Part shown: piece by piece, positions 1 to 6,447 of the stretch | Layout: each line of letters opens with the position of its first letter | Position numbering within the stretch: the stretch's first letter is position 1 | Source: a virus | Lineage: Duplodnaviria > Heunggongvirae > Uroviricota > Caudoviricetes | Direction: 5' to 3' (one strand) | Length of the DNA: 6,621 nucleotides | IMG/VR virus record: IMGVR_UViG_3300007747_000100 | Translations under genes and position numbers: made by a program | Notes under the pieces: generated by a model | What the model was told of the DNA's origin: nothing | The model's database searches: none | Seen by the model: the letters and a program-made list of their open reading frames with translations, nothing else

Positions 1-99
1 CGGAGAGTCAGGGACATTTATGTTCAGGCAGCCCAGCACATGAGGCCAGTTGTTTTCAGACGCACTGATAACCTGACGGATAAGATCAATGTTTCGCAT
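1..99 (-). CDS. hypothetical protein, N-terminal fragment (gene continues beyond window start)
   Basis: ATG at 99..97 with GGGGG about 7 nt upstream; frame open to position 1 (MRNIDLIRQVISASENNWPHVLGCLNINVPDSP...). Start is 12 nt downstream of the stop of the preceding same-strand gene. Too short for the ORF track. Confidence 0.3.
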   Translation of the reverse strand, partial: MRNIDLIRQVISASENNWPHVLGCLNINVPDSP

Positions 100-111
100 T
101 CTGGCCCCCGT

Positions 112-714
112 TTAGTGCGTCACTGGTGCTTCTGGGATGCCGTTTTCGTTTAGTTCGGCAATAAAGCTGTTGTGAAGATCGGCAAGCACTTCTCGCCCAA
201 ACGAAGTGAGTGTTCCCTGTTCGACATCGAACATGTTGCTGTAAAAAATGATGGCATTCTTTGTTCCGACATCAACACCATATTTCTCGATCATTGCGCC
301 CTCAATGTTGTTTGCCATAGCGAGGCGCTCTGCTACTGGATACAGCGGCATGGCGACGATGCCATTGGAATAAACAGAAACCACGGAATGATTGCCACTG
401 TCATCAATAATGCTGACGGTGCCGTTTTCCTTTCTCATTTCATTGATTAATGCTGTTGCTATCAGCCAGCGCCACATAATCACGTGATGCTGTGATGTGT
501 AATCGAAATATCCCTGGTTGCCGCCACTGGCAATAGCGAGATGTATAAACATGCCTTCATCTGGTTTATCGTCATAATCCCCGGCATCCAGACGATTTAC
601 GGCATCAATATATGAGACGGTCTCAACGCGTTCTGTCATGCCATTGTTGCTGCGGTGCATGATGTTTACGCCGTCAGGCGTTGCTTCTGCATGGAAGGTT
701 AAGAAATTATTCAT
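112..714 (-). CDS. hypothetical protein, about 200 aa (track ORF 112..771 trimmed)
   Basis: The track ORF begins at a TTG (771..769). The first ATG with a Shine-Dalgarno (GAGG, 6-nt spacer) is at 714..712, giving MNNFLTF.... This ATG overlaps the stop of the upstream 57-aa ORF as ATGAATAA. Stop TAA at 114..112. No family recognised. Confidence 0.6.
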   Translation of the reverse strand: MNNFLTFHAEATPDGVNIMHRSNNGMTERVETVSYIDAVNRLDAGDYDDKPDEGMFIHLAIASGGNQGYFDYTSQHHVIMWRWLIATALINEMRKENGTVSIIDDSGNHSVVSVYSNGIVAMPLYPVAERLAMANNIEGAMIEKYGVDVGTKNAIIFYSNMFDVEQGTLTSFGREVLADLHNSFIAELNENGIPEAPVTH

Positions 715-880
715 GTTTCGCCTCGCCTGAATGATTCTGTAACTCATAGAGCAGTGACATAACCGCGCCAATCATTAACTTGTCTCTGTTGCTTGGGCTG
801 GCCCCTTCAAGCCAGAACCCTAAAACAGTCTGAACCTGTTCGATGCGACATTGCGCTTCAATGAGCTGGATGTTGGTCAT
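707..880 (-). CDS. small hypothetical protein, 57 aa (not in ORF track)
   Basis: Manual translation of the minus strand: ATG 880..878 overlaps the TGA of the 87-aa gene (ATGA), with GGAG 8 nt upstream. Open frame MTNIQLIEAQCRIEQVQTVLGFWLEGASPSNRDKLMIGAVMSLLYELQNHSGEAKHE to TAA 709..707, which overlaps the next gene's ATG. Fills what would otherwise be a 105-nt gap in a tightly packed operon. Confidence 0.5.
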   Translation of the reverse strand: MTNIQLIEAQCRIEQVQTVLGFWLEGASPSNRDKLMIGAVMSLLYELQNHSGEAKHE

Positions 881-1140
881 TTCGCACTCTCCACATCGAT
901 TAAACTGATATCTATCAGGGAGGTAACTTTTTGTAGCCAGCTATTGATTACTGTCGCCTGTTCCCCTCCCACCGATGGAAGAATCTCATTCATCACATGA
1001 ACCAGACCTGTGCGCGCTCTGGTAAGCCGTTCAGTCGTGCGATCTGCAAGAGTGAATGTGTCTGGATATGGCTCTTCACGGCTCAGCAATGATTCAATTT
1101 CCAGCTCACACGGATGACGATAAATTAAGTTGATATTCAT
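877..1140 (-). CDS. small hypothetical protein, 87 aa
   Basis: Track ORF; ATG 1140..1138 overlaps the upstream stop (ATGA); GGGGGTG upstream; stop TGA 879..877. Confidence 0.6.
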   Translation of the reverse strand: MNINLIYRHPCELEIESLLSREEPYPDTFTLADRTTERLTRARTGLVHVMNEILPSVGGEQATVINSWLQKVTSLIDISLIDVESAK

Positions 1141-1331
1141 TTTTCACCCCCAAGAATTACCAGCTCTGCACGGGCATCGTTAACCAAAGATGAGCACGCT
1201 TTAATCGCATCCACGACATCAGTAGCGTCCATTTCTTCAGCCGAAAGACTGACAGCAACCAGGACAGCCGCTGCTTGCTCGATTAATTGAAGTGCGGACG
1301 TAAGGCGAGGGGTATTAATTGAGTTATTCAT
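1137..1331 (-). CDS. small hypothetical protein, 64 aa
   Basis: Track ORF; ATG 1331..1329 overlaps the stop of the 72-aa gene (ATGAATAA); G-rich tract about 8 nt upstream; stop TGA 1139..1137. Confidence 0.55.
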   Translation of the reverse strand: MNNSINTPRLTSALQLIEQAAAVLVAVSLSAEEMDATDVVDAIKACSSLVNDARAELVILGGEK

Positions 1332-1542
1332 TGGTTGCCCCCGTTTTTACTGGCATTTCGCCACCTTCCAGCAGGAAATGAACGTCACGAACGGCGAGAT
1401 CCAATATCGCGAGTAACGCCTTCAGTCTTTCGTCTCGTGAGGGAGAGTTGCTCACCAGAATGTCGTTAATCACTTCTGTCAGTGTGATGATCTGGCTTGT
1501 GCGTTCGAGGGGATCCATATGCACATCGTAGTTTTTAATCAT
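1324..1542 (-). CDS. small hypothetical protein, 72 aa (C-terminal segment of the 344-aa track ORF, with its own start)
   Basis: In-frame ATG at 1542..1540 preceded by GGAGG (6-nt spacer) and overlapping the TAA of the 1535..1729 ORF (ATGATTAA). Product MIKNYDVHMDPLERTSQ... has normal mixed composition. Stop TAA 1326..1324. Confidence 0.55.
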   Translation of the reverse strand: MIKNYDVHMDPLERTSQIITLTEVINDILVSNSPSRDERLKALLAILDLAVRDVHFLLEGGEMPVKTGATNE

Positions 1543-1729
1543 GTGCCACCTCCATGCGGATACGACCAGCAAAAAAGCAGATGTGATCGCGCACCAGAGA
1601 ACGGCGAGCATCGCGTTCAGACTCGGCAGCAATATGATGAATTTTGGCGGTAATTGTCGGGCAATCGCGGCGAACTGCGGCGATAATCCAGATAAATTGC
1701 GTTTTTTGGGTAGGGGTAGTAGCCAGCAT
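1535..1729 (-). CDS. small hypothetical protein, 64 aa
   Basis: ATG 1729..1727 preceded by a perfect AAGGAGG with 7-nt spacer. Balanced composition (MLATTPTQKTQFIWIIAAVRRDCPTITAKIHHIAAESERDARR...), whereas the alternative frame (the 344-aa track ORF) over the same bases is Leu/Pro/Ala-rich with no acidic residues. Stop TAA overlaps the next start. Confidence 0.55.
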   Translation of the reverse strand: MLATTPTQKTQFIWIIAAVRRDCPTITAKIHHIAAESERDARRSLVRDHICFFAGRIRMEVAHD

Positions 1730-2358
1730 GTGGCAGCCTCCTTCAGATAGCAGGTTACGCTACCACCGGAAACGCCAATTTCGCTGGTGGTAGCCCAGAC
1801 AGGGTTGGCGTAACCGGCTCTGAAGGATACCGGCGCTTCCGAAGAAGCCCCCGCCTGAGCCACCATTGATTGACAAAGGCGCTGGATTATACACCAACGC
1901 CCAAAAAATGGGTGAGTCAGACCTACGACATAAAAAAAGACGCTCGGCGCGTCATATGTCGCCTTCAGAATTTTCAGGACGCCAATCCCGGCACCCGTTT
2001 TATGAGGTGCCTTATAACCATAAACCGTGTTGCCGCATAACGGCAAGCTCTTTTTTATGGACTCCGAAAACTCACTATTGGAAGTAACGTCACGCGCGTG
2101 GACGAAGGTTTTTGTGGAGTCACTACACGAGCAGAGAAAGCCATCTACGACCAGAAATTCTCTGGCATAGCCGCTGACCTTCTCAACGCTAACACCATCG
2201 ACCGTAATTTCTGACATAGTTAAGGCATCCGCTCCTACCACCAGCAAATGATAAACTTTGCTTGTATCTGCTGTATTAATGTCTGACTTTGCTGTCATAT
2301 TGCTGGATTTTGGCGACATACCAGCCAGTGAAAATGTCTTCTTCTGGACGGGTATCAT
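1730..2358 (-). CDS. hypothetical protein, 5' portion of the 344-aa track ORF; 3' end unresolved (possible frameshift/pseudogene or genuine overlap)
   Basis: ATG 2358..2356 overlaps the stop of the 59-aa ORF (ATGA), GGAGG with 7-nt spacer upstream. The frame stays open to 1324, but downstream of about 1730 the evidence favours two separate small genes. The other two minus frames have stops at 1765..1763 and 1757..1755, just upstream of the next gene's RBS. Contains terminator-like hairpins on both strands. Confidence 0.35.
1932..1953 (-). terminator. terminator-like hairpin plus T-run on the minus strand, inside the long ORF
   Basis: On the minus strand: GACGC / GCGTC stem (1939-1953 in plus coordinates) with a 5-nt loop, followed by seven T (plus-strand A-run 1932-1938). 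The same bases encode ...[10 protein letters not shown] in the ORF frame. Confidence 0.3.
2030..2056 (+). terminator. terminator-like hairpin plus T-run on the plus strand, inside the long minus-strand ORF
   Basis: Stem TTGCCG (2030-2035) / CGGCAA (2041-2046), loop CATAA, then GCTC and TTTTTT (2051-2056). Confidence 0.35.
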
Positions 2359-2534
2359 TGGTTAACCTCCGCGAACTCCTTCATGAAACGCGCCAGCGGT
2401 TGTACGCATGGCGATTGATACCCGTCGCGATAAAACGTCACTCGGTTGTGAGACACGCTTTCGACAGTAACGAGTGCTCCGTGGGCATCTTTGTAGCGTT
2501 TTTGTGGTTGTGGTATTCCTGTTGGCTTAGACAT
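2355..2534 (-). CDS. small hypothetical protein, 59 aa (trimmed from track ORF 2355..2621)
   Basis: Internal ATG at 2534..2532 preceded by GGAGG (6-nt spacer) and overlapping the TAA of the AntA-like gene by 8 nt. The track's longer N-terminal extension would lie out of frame inside that gene. Stop TGA 2357..2355. Confidence 0.5.
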   Translation of the reverse strand: MSKPTGIPQPQKRYKDAHGALVTVESVSHNRVTFYRDGYQSPCVQPLARFMKEFAEVNQ

Positions 2535-3360
2535 TGAGCGCCTCCAGACGCTTGGCGAGCCAGCGTTGCGACAGGTGGGTGAGTTCTCCTTTGCGCTGCT
2601 CATATTCCATGCCCATATCAATTAACGTGATATTGGTGCTTTCGAGATATGAGAGGTGCTCAAGCTGTTCTGCGTTCATATGGTCGCGAGGTTCGCCAGA
2701 ATAGCCATTTATCCGCGCCCACTGCTTAGCAGTTAGCCCACCAAGAACGATACGAGAAATCATATTGCTCTCGTTTGTGTAGTGGTGTTGCTGCGTCGTT
2801 TTCCCCTGCTCGGCACGGGCCATGTTCAGCGCATCGCACATTGGCTTAAAGTTGTTTGCGGCACTGATACGGGCTTTTAGCTGGCGACGATAGCGGGCGG
2901 CGATTTCAGGCACGGTACGCTGTAATTCTTCCTCGCACTGGATGAAATAACGACGGATAGCGCGACCCTGATCATTGCGTTCGATCATTGCCAGTTCTTT
3001 CGCCATTCCGACACTTAACAGATAGTCTTTGCCGGGTCTGCCAGAGTGCTTAATCTTGCTGTAAGCCGCGCCATTCGGGCTTTTCCCCAAATTTGGGGAA
3101 ATTGTTTTATGGACTGAGTAATCGTGCCCAATGGTGAAGTCATATTCAGAGATGCGATCAGTGATCCATGTAGAGAAGTCTTTTCCCACGCCCAACGCTT
3201 TGTGTAACGCTTTTGCGCTAACAATATTGGTTTCACGCCCACCTATATGACCAGAAATAACCGGGACAATTGCGGCAAATTCATTACCGTTAATTGTGCC
3301 CAGAGAGGCGTTCAGATGAGGGGCGGCCTCAGAAATTAATCTGCTTTTTTCGATGTTCAT
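2527..3360 (-). CDS. putative phage antirepressor-like protein (AntA-type N-terminal domain), 277 aa
   Basis: Track ORF; ATG 3360 with GGAG (7-nt spacer). The N-terminal region (...NIVSAKALHKALGVGKDFSTWITDRISEYDFTIGHDY...) resembles the AntA/antirepressor domain as I recall it; this is a family-level call from memory, not a search result. Confidence 0.6.
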   Translation of the reverse strand: MNIEKSRLISEAAPHLNASLGTINGNEFAAIVPVISGHIGGRETNIVSAKALHKALGVGKDFSTWITDRISEYDFTIGHDYSVHKTISPNLGKSPNGAAYSKIKHSGRPGKDYLLSVGMAKELAMIERNDQGRAIRRYFIQCEEELQRTVPEIAARYRRQLKARISAANNFKPMCDALNMARAEQGKTTQQHHYTNESNMISRIVLGGLTAKQWARINGYSGEPRDHMNAEQLEHLSYLESTNITLIDMGMEYEQRKGELTHLSQRWLAKRLEALNV

Positions 3361-3372
3361 TTTTAGTCTCCG

Positions 3373-3678
3373 TTAGGCGGCGTTAAACGCGTCCGGGTAG
3401 AGTTTCAGAATGTCGGCAATTTCCTGCTGAGAAAGTCCGTTGTGATCATTTATGTTCGCAAGATGGTTAACATGAGTGATCACTTTCAGAACATCACCAC
3501 GGCAGGAGAAACGGTAGCGAAGGTGTGTTCCGATACCATCAGGATTCTTTTCGTCGATACGCTCCAGAGTGATTCCAAGCTGGCGTTCTAACTCTGTTGC
3601 ATAGTTACGACCAGAAGACAGACGGCAGTAGCGAAGAATGTCATTTTCTGTCCATCCCTCTATACCAGTACGCAGCAT
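3373..3678 (-). CDS. hypothetical protein, 101 aa
   Basis: Track ORF; ATG 3678, weak AAGAG upstream; 12-nt gap to the next gene; same strand and operon context as alpA. No family recognised. Confidence 0.6.
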   Translation of the reverse strand: MLRTGIEGWTENDILRYCRLSSGRNYATELERQLGITLERIDEKNPDGIGTHLRYRFSCRGDVLKVITHVNHLANINDHNGLSQQEIADILKLYPDAFNAA

Positions 3679-3720: not shown

Positions 3721-3939
3721 TCAGGCCACCTTCCCGCGGCGTTCTGCCAGCCAGTTATTAATTTCCACCGCATCAAACGCAGTCACGTTATCTGTTAGCT
3801 TCACTGGGCGTGGAAGAGTGCCATTTTTAACCCATCTATCAATAGTAGGCAGTGAAACACCTAGCAATTCCGGCATGCGAAAGCGACGGATGTATCCAGT
3901 TGTTGGGATAGCTGATGATGCTGGCTTGTGTGCTGTCAT
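3721..3939 (-). CDS. alpA: AlpA/Vis-family phage transcriptional regulator / excisionase-like HTH protein, 72 aa (start uncertain)
   Basis: Segment RMPELLGVSLPTIDRWVKNGTLPRPVKL matches the characteristic AlpA-family helix-turn-helix pattern (recalled family knowledge, so the symbol is family-level). The ATG at 3939 has only a weak SD and the 5' end carries TGATAGCT-type motifs, so the true start could be further downstream (e.g. Met22). Confidence 0.75.
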   Translation of the reverse strand: MTAHKPASSAIPTTGYIRRFRMPELLGVSLPTIDRWVKNGTLPRPVKLTDNVTAFDAVEINNWLAERRGKVA

Positions 3940-3956: not shown

Positions 3957-3969
3957 TGATAGCTCATGA
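3957..3969 (+). repeat. 13-mer TGATAGCTCATGA, copy 1 (alpA leader / 5' end)
   Basis: Exact 13-bp match to 6435-6447; contains the recurrent oriented 8-mer TGATAGCT. Confidence 0.5.
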
Positions 3970-4020: not shown

Positions 4021-4052
4021 ATCTATTGAAAGAAATTATAAATCTATTGAAA
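4021..4052. promoter_or_regulatory. operator-like direct repeats ATCTATTGAAA (x2, 21 bp apart) flanking a minus-strand TATAAT; candidate promoter/operator of the alpA operon
   Basis: ATCTATTGAAA at 4021-4031 and 4042-4052. Between them the minus strand reads TATAAT (plus coordinates 4035-4040). No convincing -35 found; the A/T-rich upstream could act as an UP element. About 95 nt upstream of the alpA ATG. Confidence 0.3.
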
Positions 4053-4230
4053 AAATACCGATCCACTGAAAGATTGCAAATACAGGTGGGATAATTATTT
4101 TCTTTATTTTCAATTAGTTACCAGTTTAAAAAATCATTGTTTTATCAAAGAGTTATATCTTTCATCGTCATTCATCATGTTTTTACATTTCTTTTTATCT
4201 TTTATTATTCAATTGGTTGAGTCGGTTTAT

Positions 4231-4270
4231 AATGGCTCATGATGGCTTAAAATGGCTAATGATAGCTGGC
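4231..4270 (+). repeat. four tandem 10-bp repeats (aATGGCTcat / gATGGCTtaa / aATGGCTaat / gATAGCTggc), helically phased
   Basis: Direct reading: core (A/G)AT(G/A)GCT begins at 4231, 4241, 4251 and 4261, exactly 10 bp apart, in the AT-rich region between the 216-aa gene and alpA. Confidence 0.6.
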
Positions 4271-4410
4271 GTATCTTTTAGAGATGGGGTGATTACAGAT
4301 GAACTAAGCCGAACAGATATAGCAATGGCTAGGCATAGAATTATCTATGCTGGTGGAGATGGGTAAACAGGTAATGCCCCGCCATTGCTTTGGAGGGGCG
4401 TGAAAAGTGA

Positions 4411-5061
4411 TTAGTCGAGATCGTGGACAGCTAATAAAGCCCGTGAGATTTTTTCTAGGAATGTGGCTTTTGCTATTCCTTTATGGGATATCCCTTCATC
4501 CTTGATTAAGGTTTCTATGTCACGGTATATAGCTGTGCGATTAGGTTTCCCATTTTGGATGTAGGAAGATGAGCCTGATTTTTTTATCAGCAGATGTACT
4601 ATCAACCCCATCATTTTCATTGTCCCGTTTTCCTCATCCTGCTTTCTATGCTGCCCACGTCCGCTGCGGTTGGTTTCTTTGATGTAGTTTACTAACTGGA
4701 GTCCTCCAAGGTTTCGGGCTTTTTCTTCCCAGCCCTTGGTGCCACGCAAATCATCAATCGCTTCTGATATTTTCTGAACAATTATTTCTGGTGTATTTGT
4801 GTCAATAAATGGGTAAGAAGCTAAGAAAATATCAAGGGCATGGCAAGGCTCGTCTTTACTAGTTTTTTCACCTCTGTACACCTTGATAGCTCTGGCAAGA
4901 TGAGTTCTGACAAAATCGACATATTCGAAATTTTCCTCAGGCACATCGCTAATGCGCATAGATGGGTTTAGGCCAGCCAAGGCCACAGCCATTTCATGAG
5001 GGGTAATCGATACAGATGAACAAAGCCGTTCGATTGGCGATTTTCTCAAGATGTTGTTCAC
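4411..5061 (-). CDS. hypothetical protein, 216 aa, unknown function; integrase-coupled accessory gene
   Basis: GTG start 5061..5059 overlaps the integrase stop (GTGA) and is preceded by GGAGG with a 5-nt spacer. Long open frame, and visibly more AT-rich than the integrase gene by eye. No conserved motif recognised (no Walker A, no clear transmembrane segment). Confidence 0.7.
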   Translation of the reverse strand: MNNILRKSPIERLCSSVSITPHEMAVALAGLNPSMRISDVPEENFEYVDFVRTHLARAIKVYRGEKTSKDEPCHALDIFLASYPFIDTNTPEIIVQKISEAIDDLRGTKGWEEKARNLGGLQLVNYIKETNRSGRGQHRKQDEENGTMKMMGLIVHLLIKKSGSSSYIQNGKPNRTAIYRDIETLIKDEGISHKGIAKATFLEKISRALLAVHDLD

Positions 5062-6326
5062 ATTTGCCTCCGGGCTTTATCGAATGGCGTTACGTTGTAG
5101 TCTTTCCCGCTTTCCAGTGCCACCAGCAGATCAGCCCACTGTGCCAGCGCAGCTTTACGCTCATCAAAATACTGATGGCGGTTATAAATCCCCTCCACAC
5201 CCTTAATGCGATGATTGAGGCATCGTTCCGCTACGACAGGATCAACACCCAATGCTGCTAAATGAGTACGTGCGGTACGCCGGAAGTCGTGAATCGTGAA
5301 ATTAGGCACATCCGGCATTTCGGCGCGAACCTTAGCCAGTGCTACGGGTAAAGTGCTTTCCTGAATATGTGGGATCATTCTGTTTTGCATCTTCCTGGCT
5401 GGAAGCACCCATGCGCTATTACATGAAAAGGTGTGTAGCTCTCTCAACCATTCAACGGCTGGGGAAGGTAGAGGTATATCAATAGGGTCTCCGTTTTTGC
5501 TGCGTTCTTCCGGCAAATGCCATACCGCACCATCTAAATCAAACTCTTCCCATCGTGCGGCGCATAACTCCATCTTACGAACGCATAGTGCCAGCAATAG
5601 CTTAAATGTCAGTTCGTTCTGGCGGCTGAATCCTTTTGCGGTGCGCATAGCCTCGAATAGCCTGATAAGCTCATCGCGAGTTAGCCAACGGTCGCGGGAA
5701 ACCTCTTTACCACCAGCATCAGATACTTCAAACGCTGAACAAGGGTTTATCTCCAGAGCGTGGCGTTTTATCCCATAGTCAAAGATACGGCGTGCCCAGC
5801 GTAATACATCTGTTGCTATCGTTGGTGCTCCTCGGTCAACGATACCTTTCAACATGTCGTCAATGTGGCGTGGCTTAACGTCCTCTACCTTCATATGCCC
5901 AATGCAGGGGTTAATATCCTTATCAATTCTCCGGCGAAGGATATCGGGATGTTTCCATCTCGGAAGTATCTGGCGCTCGAAGTATTCGGAGGCCAGATCT
6001 GAAACACGCATGGCGTTTTTCTCAGCCTCCATTTTTGCCAGTGCTTCAGCTTTTCGTTCCTGTTTCTCTGCTGCTACGTCATAGCCAAGAGCAACTCTGG
6101 CTGACAGCTCTTTTGCTGTTTCTCTGGCTTTTGATAGTGACAGTTCGGAGTAAGAGCCTATAACCATAGCCCGCTGCTTTCCTGCGAGCTTATAGCGGAA
6201 TCGCCAGAACGGGACTGTGTAGTTTTTGGGGTAGCAAATATAAAGGCCGTTGCCGTCTGCCTTGCCATCAAATCTGTCTCCCGCCTTTATCCATGCGCGG
6301 ATCTGCATATCTGTGAGTTTTGGCAT
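5058..6326 (-). CDS. int: tyrosine site-specific integrase, P4-like family (about 422 aa)
   Basis: N-terminus MPKLTDMQIRAWIKAG...DGNGLYI matches the arm-binding N-terminal domain typical of P4-type integrases. The C-terminal region has the tyrosine-recombinase hallmarks (HDFRRTARTH; GIYNRHQY with the presumed catalytic Tyr). Start trimmed from the track's 6410 to the ATG at 6326..6324. Confidence 0.9.
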   Translation of the reverse strand: MPKLTDMQIRAWIKAGDRFDGKADGNGLYICYPKNYTVPFWRFRYKLAGKQRAMVIGSYSELSLSKARETAKELSARVALGYDVAAEKQERKAEALAKMEAEKNAMRVSDLASEYFERQILPRWKHPDILRRRIDKDINPCIGHMKVEDVKPRHIDDMLKGIVDRGAPTIATDVLRWARRIFDYGIKRHALEINPCSAFEVSDAGGKEVSRDRWLTRDELIRLFEAMRTAKGFSRQNELTFKLLLALCVRKMELCAARWEEFDLDGAVWHLPEERSKNGDPIDIPLPSPAVEWLRELHTFSCNSAWVLPARKMQNRMIPHIQESTLPVALAKVRAEMPDVPNFTIHDFRRTARTHLAALGVDPVVAERCLNHRIKGVEGIYNRHQYFDERKAALAQWADLLVALESGKDYNVTPFDKARRQM

Positions 6327-6355
6327 TGCGAATACCTGAATATCGAATATGGGGG

Positions 6356-6405
6356 TGTACATAAAGCAATGTACATGAAAGTCATTATGTACACCTCTAT
6401 GTACA
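6356..6405. promoter_or_regulatory. four TGTACA hexamers immediately upstream of the integrase start (candidate regulator or arm-type binding sites)
   Basis: TGTACA at 6356-6361, 6370-6375, 6388-6393 and 6400-6405, mostly in the context ATGTACA(C/T), within 80 bp upstream of the int ATG at 6326. Confidence 0.45.
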
Positions 6406-6434
6406 CGCATATTGTGCGCTTTGTTGCGTTGTTA

Positions 6435-6447
6435 TGATAGCTCATGA
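6435..6447 (+). repeat. 13-mer TGATAGCTCATGA, copy 2 (between the int upstream region and the junction terminator); candidate att or arm-type site
   Basis: Exact 13-bp direct repeat of 3957-3969. A further TGATAGCT lies at 6508-6515, overlapping the stop codon of the flanking gene. Confidence 0.45.

Follow-up and report, generated by a model that had tools for sequence, protein, structure and literature searches.

Two Small Genes with Stop/Start Overlaps on Either Side of a P4-Type RNA Immunity Module in a Putative Phage-Inducible Chromosomal Island of Escherichia coli

Introduction

Helper-phage-dependent induction, excision and packaging have been demonstrated for the phage-inducible chromosomal islands (PICIs) EcCIMP1 (PMC11773190) and EcCICFT073 (PMC6092414), and AlpA is the PICI activator (PMC6092414, PMC11773190). 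EcCIMP1 of Escherichia coli MP1 (ISME J 2025, PMC11773190; GenBank OR778291) has been shown by experiment to be induced and transferred by the helper phage Kapi1, with AlpA as its master regulator (PMC11773190). The subject of the present study is the 6,621-nucleotide (nt) IMG/VR virus record IMGVR_UViG_3300007747_000100, the whole of which is hereafter called the window, and which very probably represents the integrase-proximal 6.6 kb of an EcCIMP1-like PICI of E. coli, wherein a 59-amino-acid (aa) open reading frame (ORF) would be a short-form DUF4222 gene, a 57-aa ORF a copy of a ~70-aa three-helix gene with a 16-codon deletion, ATG 714 the start of a 200-aa gene, and the mechanism of control P4-like.

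In phage P4, a constitutive promoter lies inside the gene eta, the transcript of this promoter stops early via CI/seqA pairing and Kil is translated only on read-through, while full-length eta depends on an upstream promoter for its translation, which is coupled to the alpA homologue and prevents termination (PMC10111431). Profiles of the C4 and isrK RNAs match several Gram-negative PICIs (PMC10111431). The presence of a P4-type RNA immunity module in PICIs has, in general terms, already been described. The immI operon of phages P1 and P7 has the layout c4, icd, ant. At the Gifsy-1 isrK-orf45-anrP locus, a small RNA lies just upstream of a short ORF, the translation of which, via an AUGA stop/start overlap, is needed for the following gene (PLoS Genet 2016, PMC4825925).

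One of the two small genes also has a studied relative: RgdR (ECs1581/C1493) is a 99-aa DUF4222 regulator of type III secretion and motility, the RGD motif of which, at residues 20-22, matters for the activation of type III secretion (Mol Microbiol 2011, PMC3378721), and which was reported to have its gene in every E. coli PICI analyzed (PMC6092414).

Results and Discussion

The Two Small Genes and the Start of the 200-aa Gene

An initial annotation, made from the letters of the window and a list of its ORFs, had proposed that two small ORFs of 57 and 59 aa missing from the list are real, and that the gene downstream of the former starts at ATG 714 rather than at TTG 771 (coordinates of all the features are given in Table 1). 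The ORF list has a default cut-off of 60 aa and reports the first start codon after an in-frame stop; the 57-aa ORF is indeed missing from it because of the cut-off, whereas the 59-aa frame is listed, but only as an 88-aa TTG ORF, and the gene downstream of the 57-aa ORF is shown as a 219-aa TTG ORF. Shine–Dalgarno (SD) sequences, scored as the predicted pairing of the upstream 20 nt with the 3' tail of the 16S rRNA, are as good as had been claimed for both small ORFs (-9.3 kcal/mol for ATG 2534 and -6.8 kcal/mol for ATG 880) and similarly so for ATG 714 (-7.3 kcal/mol), against -2.9 kcal/mol for TTG 771 and -0.1 kcal/mol for TTG 2621; about 10% of the minus-strand positions reach -6 kcal/mol and 2.3% reach -9 kcal/mol. 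Both small ORFs overlap their neighbors on both sides: the ATG of the 57-aa ORF overlaps the TGA of an 87-aa gene (ATGA, 877-880) and its stop overlaps ATG 714 of the 200-aa gene by 8 nt (ATGAATAA), while ATG 2534 overlaps the TAA of an AntA/AntB-type (AntA/B) antirepressor gene by 8 nt (ATGTCTAA, 2527-2534) and the stop of the 59-aa ORF overlaps ATG 2358 of a 344-aa frame (ATGA).

The 59-aa protein matches Pfam PF13973 (DUF4222) with an E value of 3.6e-25 and 87.7 bits (cut-off 27) over profile positions 2-53 of 53, i.e., the complete domain, which is fully spanned by residues 7-58 of this form, and RefSeq uses the same gene boundaries. Its homologues are mostly 57-60 aa long in seven genera (Escherichia, Salmonella, Klebsiella, Cedecea, Pluralibacter, Enterobacter and Citrobacter), a precomputed DUF4222 domain being present on all but one of 56 of them. 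Differences from a Serratia copy are distributed 20/14/33 by codon position, with a ratio of non-synonymous to synonymous substitution rates (dN/dS) of 0.11, and every annotated locus save one (L007, with the gene truncated by an IS3-family element) retains the 8 nt shared with the stop of AntA/B. Judging from this conservation, the 59-aa ORF is a genuine conserved gene, as had been proposed.

What this gene does is a separate matter. RgdR shares the Pfam domain, and the cores are 39% identical (residues 14-57 of the window protein against residues 24-67 of CFT073 C1493, E 2.6e-12), but RgdR has RGD at residues 20-22, opposite which the window protein shows P10-Q11-K12, and RgdR is ~99 aa long with a basic C-terminal tail past the core (residues 20-68), whereas the window protein ends, at 59 aa, where the core ends, and is in this respect akin to the 63-aa "truncates" of the RgdR study (PMC3378721). 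The position of the gene is different too, as the DUF4222 gene stands before the immunity module in the window and directly before the primase gene in EcCICFT073. Since both the RGD motif and the C-terminal tail are lacking, RgdR function should not be transferred to the 59-aa protein.

For the 200-aa gene, the start annotated by RefSeq is the equivalent of ATG 714 at all the loci examined, and residue 22 of the protein is aligned with profile position 22 of phrog_1515 (E 2.4e-46). Among the best 120 homologues, 112 are 196-210 aa long (208 aa in 90 and 200 aa in 10), their N-terminus is M-[S/N]-N, 3 to 17 residues ahead of a conserved HAEATP. In 102 of the 120 the distance of this motif from the N-terminus is 7 or 15 residues, and the 19-aa extension that a start at TTG 771 would add is absent from all 120. 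Two diverged relatives likewise begin with MNN or MSN, at an ATG overlapping the preceding gene and a few residues before a HAEATP.GVNIM block. The extension from TTG 771 is the +1 frame of a 73-aa gene dealt with below and shows non-conservative changes between relatives. By these comparisons ATG 714, and not TTG 771, is the start of the 200-aa gene; the initial annotation had arrived at the same start from the overlap of ATG 714 with the 57-aa stop, and the SD, RefSeq, phrog_1515 and the homologue N-termini all agree with it. A relationship of the 200-aa protein to P4 Cnr/DUF5375 was also considered and is not supported, as the window protein gives no match at E up to 1, though a few homologues carry a precomputed PF17345.

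That the true genes are instead the longer, mechanically called ORFs from TTG 2621 (88 aa) and TTG 771 (219 aa) is very unlikely. These are the first start codons past an in-frame stop, and a few DUF4222 gene calls in the database do have longer N-termini (P0028 with 82 aa and P0030 with 102 aa), yet neither TTG shows SD pairing, the full-length DUF4222 homologues of the seven genera mostly keep to the short form that already covers the profile, the TTG 2621 form would overlap the AntA/B gene by 95 nt, and no homologue of the 200-aa protein is extended past its M-[S/N]-N start.

The start and stop of the 57-aa ORF bound a 73-aa gene in PA45B, one of the E. coli genomes best matching the window, and in five other diverged E. 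coli loci. Against a relative at 86% nucleotide identity, the 73-aa gene shows 14 synonymous versus 12 non-synonymous codon changes (8/4/19 by codon position; dN/dS 0.12), while in that relative both other frames hold stops and the 4-nt and 8-nt overlaps are retained. An exhaustive search for the family yielded 46 clusters at 50% identity, most with members of 58-81 aa, the alignment of which has the consensus LIDAxCRVEQAQAVLSxWLE ... LIGAxxTLLxGVPExIxxA. Of 63 related viral-contig loci, 60 have an intact ORF, which measures 66-74 aa in 53 and is part of a 149-aa fusion in 7, and the remaining 3 have a truncated one. A 4-nt overlap of the start with the preceding stop is present in 43 of the 63, and an overlap of 4 or 8 nt between the stop and the following start in 47; what follows is most often a primase gene (20) or a member of the 200/208-aa family (14). 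In Raoultella, an 87-aa gene, a 71-aa gene and the primase gene follow one another, all joined by ATGA. For the 73-aa protein, AlphaFold2 run with the family alignment predicts three helices (6-26, 31-44 and 47-70) with a mean predicted local distance difference test score of 88.9. The neighboring 64-aa gene at 1137-1331 has, over six loci, 5 variable codons with synonymous changes only versus 2 that change the amino acid.

Conservation thus argues that the 73-aa gene family is real and that the 57-aa ORF, itself claimed to be a real gene, is not a chance frame. With 57 and 59 codons both small ORFs are short, and no Pfam or NCBIfam family matches the 57-aa protein, but the ORFs' being chance open frames in operon spacers has a negligible probability and is already refuted by the conservation data: the Pfam match at E 3.6e-25, the dN/dS of 0.11-0.12, the confident predicted fold, and lengths, positions and overlaps conserved across genera. 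The check that had been suggested, i.e., conservation of the ORFs and of their overlaps in related elements, hence comes out in their favor in the six diverged RefSeq loci, in EcCIMP1 and in most of the 63 viral-contig loci. By the same token, both small genes, as 59/60-aa and 73-aa ones, and the ATG start had already been annotated by RefSeq in the six diverged E. coli loci and in EcCIMP1 and are already known.

No function can be transferred to the 73-aa family, as neither the 57-aa nor the 73-aa form matches NCBIfam, the 57-aa protein has no Pfam match, the family has no credible one (a single member out of 36 weakly matches DUF3531, E 0.0024), and in the PDB there is no sequence relative below E 0.1 and no fold match below E 1. 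Only function-unassigned PHROG families match, among them phrog_20558, with E 1e-3 for the 57-aa copy of the window and 2.9e-9 for the 73-aa form. The family has a conserved place beside the replication genes of phage satellites. In PICI-like and P4-like elements the gene has stop/start overlaps and stands about one gene ahead of the primase gene, and the predicted ~70-aa three-helix protein may be a replication or helper-interference factor.

Three Deletions Private to the Window

The window aligns to E. coli chromosomes, and the top matches (PA45B and others) cover 100% of it, split in four pieces, with zero mismatches to PA45B outside three gaps (48, 33 and 83 nt). The first gap removes residues 45-60 from the 73-aa gene, leaving the first two-thirds of the family core; the missing segment, which contains GVPE as well as P48 and G59, both near-invariant in the family alignment, is kept in 34/34 aligned relatives and forms, in the AlphaFold2 model, the turn between helices 2 and 3 and the first half of helix 3. 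The 83-nt deletion leaves an 11-codon stub and a 101-aa remnant ORF (3373-3678) of the 143-aa gene that follows alpA. A search of 5,426 complete E. coli genomes found none of the three junctions, and the 48-nt one is also missing from collections of metagenome and viral contigs. No public contig encodes exactly the 57-aa or the 344-aa protein, the former being present in the protein collection solely as the window's own entry (P0010), the window being a whole contig. No microhomology is seen at the deletion flanks.

We put at about one half the chance that, the gene family being real, the 57-aa copy in the window is either a sequence artefact or an allele that is dead, with an assembly/editing error or a private disabling mutation behind the deletions. 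The otherwise perfect match to PA45B-type genomes, the privacy of the junctions and of both proteins, the loss of a segment that all the aligned relatives keep, the lack of microhomology and the frameshift that the 83-nt deletion causes in the 143-aa gene all speak for it. Two of the three deletions, on the other hand, keep the frame, so that the ORF and both its stop/start overlaps survive, and coupling to the 200-aa gene would require no more than this; the window contains nothing that would tell biological deletions from technical ones.

RNA Genes inside the "Ash" Frame

Between the two small genes lies the 344-aa frame, whose Phage_ASH match occupies aa 113-221 (nt 1696-2022) and which has both of the RNA genes found with Rfam models inside it, and indeed inside the stretch of that match. 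The frame crosses a promoter-like element, the leader RNA, the C4-type RNA and an Icd-like gene, the latter out of frame, as well as a 72-aa gene in frame. The leader RNA ends in an intrinsic terminator recognized by a terminator scan (stem 1939-1953 followed by a U-run). The promoter-like element, scoring 8/12 and thus below the threshold of the scan, immediately precedes the leader RNA, where P4 has PLE, and is a putative promoter. Ten loci carry the isrK-C4 pair (the window, L003, L004, L014, L033 and L052-L056), and their alignment reveals compensatory changes in the C4 stems. The loop of the second C4 hairpin is an exact 8-9 nt complement of two sites, one at the Icd-like SD and one in the leader. 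The former, 35 nt downstream of C4, is complementary to the C4 loop in 10/10 loci and co-varies with it through five loop sequences, while the leader site is complementary to it in 7/10; the co-variation of loop and target suggests distinct immunity specificities. The Icd-like SD (AAGGAGG, 1737-1743) is, at -11.7 kcal/mol, the best in the window. The 72-aa gene has an SD of -10.6 kcal/mol and an ATG overlapping the Icd-like stop by 8 nt (ATGATTAA); it is a separate RefSeq gene in one strain (L003) and has a diverged homologue in L054.

Over 267 nt of nine gapless sequences, the "Ash" frame has a median dN/dS of 0.96, versus 0.82 and 0.72 for the other frames, and its substitutions are spread 854/807/779 over the codon positions. 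Such a ratio and so even a spread indicate no protein-level constraint on the RNA-covered part of "Ash", for which a reading of the Pfam match as a protein domain was rejected, this frame faring no better than the other two. Even so, 10/10 loci lack a stop in this frame between isrK and C4, and indeed across isrK, C4 and Icd; it is open for 230-360 codons, and its N-terminal 115 codons, upstream of the internal promoter, show weak constraint (dN/dS ~0.45; variable columns 18/7/17). The Icd-like gene is in frame with this ORF in 4 loci and out of frame in 6, i.e., in the window and in 5/9 relatives; at these six loci the long frame spans the whole of Icd, and in 5/6 it joins the next gene in frame. 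A -1 frameshift at a slippery A6 run (CCC AAA AAA CGC, ~1700-1711) joining "Ash" to Icd was considered and rejected, as comparison with the in-frame relatives maps the frame difference to between GCTGCC and the Icd ATG. RefSeq calls for this region vary by strain: some strains have an "ash family protein" of 355 aa, and others either an ash pseudogene accompanied by an Icd-like gene of 64 aa or one frameshifted Icd-like pseudogene.

The initial annotation had missed this eta-like frame over the RNA genes, the two further small genes (the Icd-like 64-aa and the 72-aa ones), and the fact that the 57-aa ORF is an internally deleted allele.

The Island and Its Closest Relatives

In PA45B the island lies between yicC and dinD and measures ~18 kb. 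One of its ends has an integrase gene and the opposite one, nearby, that of a PerC regulator, the gene string being integrase, AlpA-type regulator, 143-aa, AntA/B antirepressor, DUF4222, "Ash", Icd-like, 64-aa, 87-aa, 73-aa, 200-aa, primase, DNA-ejection protein and PerC. The assignment to the PICIs was made on two sets of features. Integrase is followed by alpA and the integrase-to-primase module is transcribed one way, as in a published definition (PMC6092414). Islands of this type also have a primase/replication module, a size of ~15-20 kb and a PerC-type accessory gene, and lack a complete set of the structural and lysis genes of a phage; the PA45B island has a DUF5906 primase, a DNA-ejection protein, PerC and a length of ~18 kb and is syntenic with EcCIMP1. 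From alpA (3939) to the primase (99), every gene is on the minus strand, and the junctions range from an 8-nt overlap to a 12-nt gap, the latter lying between the stop of the 200-aa gene and ATG 99 of the primase gene.

EcCIMP1 carries the same gene string on one strand and encodes a 73-aa protein identical to the PA45B-type one (WP_000181940.1). The two islands differ in integrase and insertion site (between yicC and dinD for the window island, tRNA-Thr for EcCIMP1), EcCIMP1 has two additional small genes ahead of a primase of the TOPRIM/DUF927 type, and the window, unlike EcCIMP1, has the three private deletions. A literature search found no papers on the relevant RefSeq protein accessions or on an island between yicC and dinD.

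As to P4, its genome matches the C4 model (CI immunity RNA) at 8420-8507 and isrK at 8615-8692, the latter overlapping the a1b1 target model, and a 197-aa ORF spanning both RNAs matches Phage_ASH (E 3.8e-23), with its last 65 codons matching the Icd-like model (E 1.6e-21); the ORF and its last 65 codons correspond to eta and to the kil nested in it. An AlpA/Vis homologue stands upstream of the P4 left operon (PLL/PLE, eta with nested kil, seqA, CI RNA, epsilon, orf151, cnr, alpha), as in the window, and P4 and the window have in common the leader and C4/CI RNA inside a Phage_ASH-type frame, the Kil/Icd-like gene next, and a run of small genes ending in the primase. The window has both the C4/CI RNA gene and the loop-complementary targets, in the leader and at a ribosome-binding site, that mark an immunity module of the P4/P1 type. 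It differs from P4 in that kil is nested in frame within eta, whereas the Icd-like gene of the window is in another frame; P4 also lacks AntA/B and DUF4222 genes in the interval from vis to eta, and its epsilon, orf151 and cnr show no detectable kinship with the 72-, 64-, 87-, 73- and 200-aa genes of the window. A satellite-detection scheme took PF10554 as the marker of epsilon (PMC8628076); this equation was rejected here, for P4 epsilon matches PF25738 and it is the eta/"cI 137-aa" ORF over the CI RNA that matches PF10554 (L081 7888-8761). The P1/P7 immI operon, the Gifsy-1 locus and the window element each have an antirepressor gene, which in the window is upstream of the RNA module and in P1 and Gifsy-1 downstream of it, and the genes that would be under control in the window are replication genes, unlike those in P1 and Gifsy-1.

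Table 1. Features of the window, with positions counted from its first nucleotide.
Feature	Position	Strand	Remarks
Primase gene, first 33 codons (DUF5906/P4-alpha type)	1..99	-	ATG 99; RefSeq coding sequence (CDS) WP_001332287.1 in PA45B, L001 3748-6099
200-aa gene (phrog_1515)	112..714	-	Start ATG 714, not TTG 771; RefSeq annotation
57-aa ORF, allele of the 73-aa gene (WP_000181940.1)	707..880	-	ATG 880, TAA 707-709; without residues 45-60 (NGVPEAIQEADELLGK)
48-nt in-frame deletion junction	between 748 and 749		In the 57-aa ORF; alignment to PA45B
87-aa gene	877..1140	-	ATGA overlaps at both ends; RefSeq CDS; same-position homologue in Raoultella
64-aa gene	1137..1331	-	RefSeq CDS; start overlaps the 72-aa stop by 8 nt (ATGAATAA)
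344-aa open frame, annotated "Ash family protein", counterpart of P4 eta	1324..2358	-	ATGA overlap with the DUF4222 gene; Pfam Phage_ASH (PF10554)
72-aa gene	1324..1542	-	Last 72 codons of the 344-aa frame; SD GGAGGTGG; RefSeq WP_001426173.1 in L003
Icd/Kil-like 64-aa gene	1535..1729	-	NCBIfam NF033153, E 1e-19; other frame than the 344-aa ORF
C4-complementary site, seqB/b' type target	1739..1747 (9 nt)	-	Overlaps the Icd-like SD; element 1737..1747
C4/CI-type antisense immunity RNA	1783..1870	-	Rfam RF01695, 79.9 bits (gathering 45), full model
C4 second hairpin loop	1818-1829	-	Exact 8-9 nt complement of 1739-1747 and 1962-1969
isrK/seqA-type leader RNA	1933..2010	-	Rfam RF01394, 67.8 bits (gathering 50), full model
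Second C4-complementary site, in the leader	1962..1969	-	Complementary to the C4 loop
Promoter-like element	2017..2046	-	-35 TTGCCG 2041-2046, -10 TATGGT 2017-2022; conserved in the 10-locus alignment
33-nt in-frame deletion junction	between 2084 and 2085		In the 344-aa frame
59-aa DUF4222 gene (RgdR family, short form)	2355..2534	-	ATG 2534, stop TGA 2355-2357; Pfam PF13973; RefSeq WP_000042975.1
AntA/AntB-type antirepressor gene (277 aa)	2527..3360	-	Pfam PF08346, E 2.1e-21; RefSeq CDS; upstream neighbor of the 59-aa gene
83-nt deletion junction	between 3686 and 3687		Frameshifts the 143-aa gene after alpA

Several further observations concern the integrase-proximal part of the window. The integrase in the ORF list has 450 aa from ATG 6410 (5058-6410, minus strand), a start with no SD pairing (-0.1 kcal/mol), while RefSeq places the start at the equivalent of 6326 (422 aa), making this another first-start-after-stop call that differs from the annotation. 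A 13-nt motif, TGATAGCTCATGA, has two exact copies on the plus strand, at 3957-3969 (just upstream of alpA) and 6435-6447 (between the integrase gene and yicC), and weaker copies at 3906 and 4230, the 4 matches with at most 2 mismatches comparing with 0.19 expected by chance; these copies may be candidate integrase arm-type or AlpA binding sites. The AT-rich stretch between the 216-aa gene and alpA (4021-4073, 4224-4338) contains three copies of ATCTATTGAAAGA ~20 nt apart as well as three copies of AATGGCT(C/A)ATGAT(G/A)G, and both sets, located in the promoter region of alpA, resemble repeats of the operator or iteron type. The Rfam int-alpA RNA (RF02996) matches a related viral contig (L017 231-298, 44.9 bits) and has no match in the window at E up to 0.1.

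A Putative P4-Like Mechanism

From AntA/B to the primase, the junctions of annotated genes are 4-nt or 8-nt overlaps or the 12-nt gap, with an SD of its own at each start, the eta-like frame running over Icd being the exception, and the overlaps are conserved in the relatives (the one at 86% identity and the 63 viral-contig loci). The presence of start/stop overlaps on both sides of both small ORFs had been read in the initial annotation as coupling; the genes, the overlaps themselves, the RNA genes and the co-varying complementarity stand, while coupling and anti-termination, by homology with P4, and the protein functions are what we infer. The overlaps fit the P4 model, in which continuous translation guards a long operon against early termination.

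In the resting island, the putative promoter inside the eta-like frame would make the leader and the C4 RNA, the loop of which would pair with the leader and with the Icd/Kil SD and so block Icd/Kil translation; with Icd untranslated, transcription would end before the 72-, 64-, 87-, 57(73)- and 200-aa genes and the primase gene. Upon helper-phage induction, AlpA-driven transcripts would arrive from upstream, and ribosomes would move from AntA/B to DUF4222 through the 8-nt overlap, and from there to the eta-like frame through ATGA, so that, with translation passing over the terminator, C4 and Icd, transcription would go on. Downstream, the ATGA and ATGNNTAA overlaps would relay the ribosomes from gene to gene up to the 200-aa gene, so that no part of the message would go untranslated, with the primase gene, after its 12-nt gap, being served by its own SD. 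The 59-aa and 57-aa ORFs would, accordingly to this scheme, be links of two coupled chains, one on either side of the immunity module.

Several points weigh against this scheme. Both the coupling and the anti-termination would be taken over from P4 by homology, and since Icd, unlike kil in P4, is in a different frame from the eta-like ORF, the nested-gene model could apply only in a modified form. A stop codon interrupts the N-terminal part of the eta-like frame in one relative (L003), and RefSeq labels "ash" a pseudogene in several strains. In the window copy itself, the 83-nt deletion, by breaking the upstream 143-aa gene, would interrupt coupled translation from alpA, and the product of the 57-aa allele, devoid of the best-conserved segment of its family (GVPE and the first half of the predicted helix 3), may be inactive.

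Conclusions

As a discovery, the two small genes carry little weight, as RefSeq already has both of them and the ATG start, one comes from a Pfam family of which RgdR has been studied, and islands of this type have been published. What the locus does illustrate is that satellite operons with tight coupling are misrepresented when ORFs are called with a cut-off of 60 aa and from the first start past a stop, and that a long ORF with a Pfam match, such as "Ash", can consist mostly of RNA genes. The window is, moreover, not a faithful copy of any public sequence, which is relevant to those who use it. Within the interval, more information is to be gained from the P4-type RNA immunity module inside the "Ash" ORF.

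We would, tentatively and with the odds rather against it, propose jointly that the out-of-register eta-type frame is selected for the act of translation and not for its product, and that the ~70-aa protein is a replication or helper-interference factor. If this were true, selection would be acting on translation per se, as a means of anti-termination, and the "Ash" domain would largely be a conceptual translation of conserved RNA genes.

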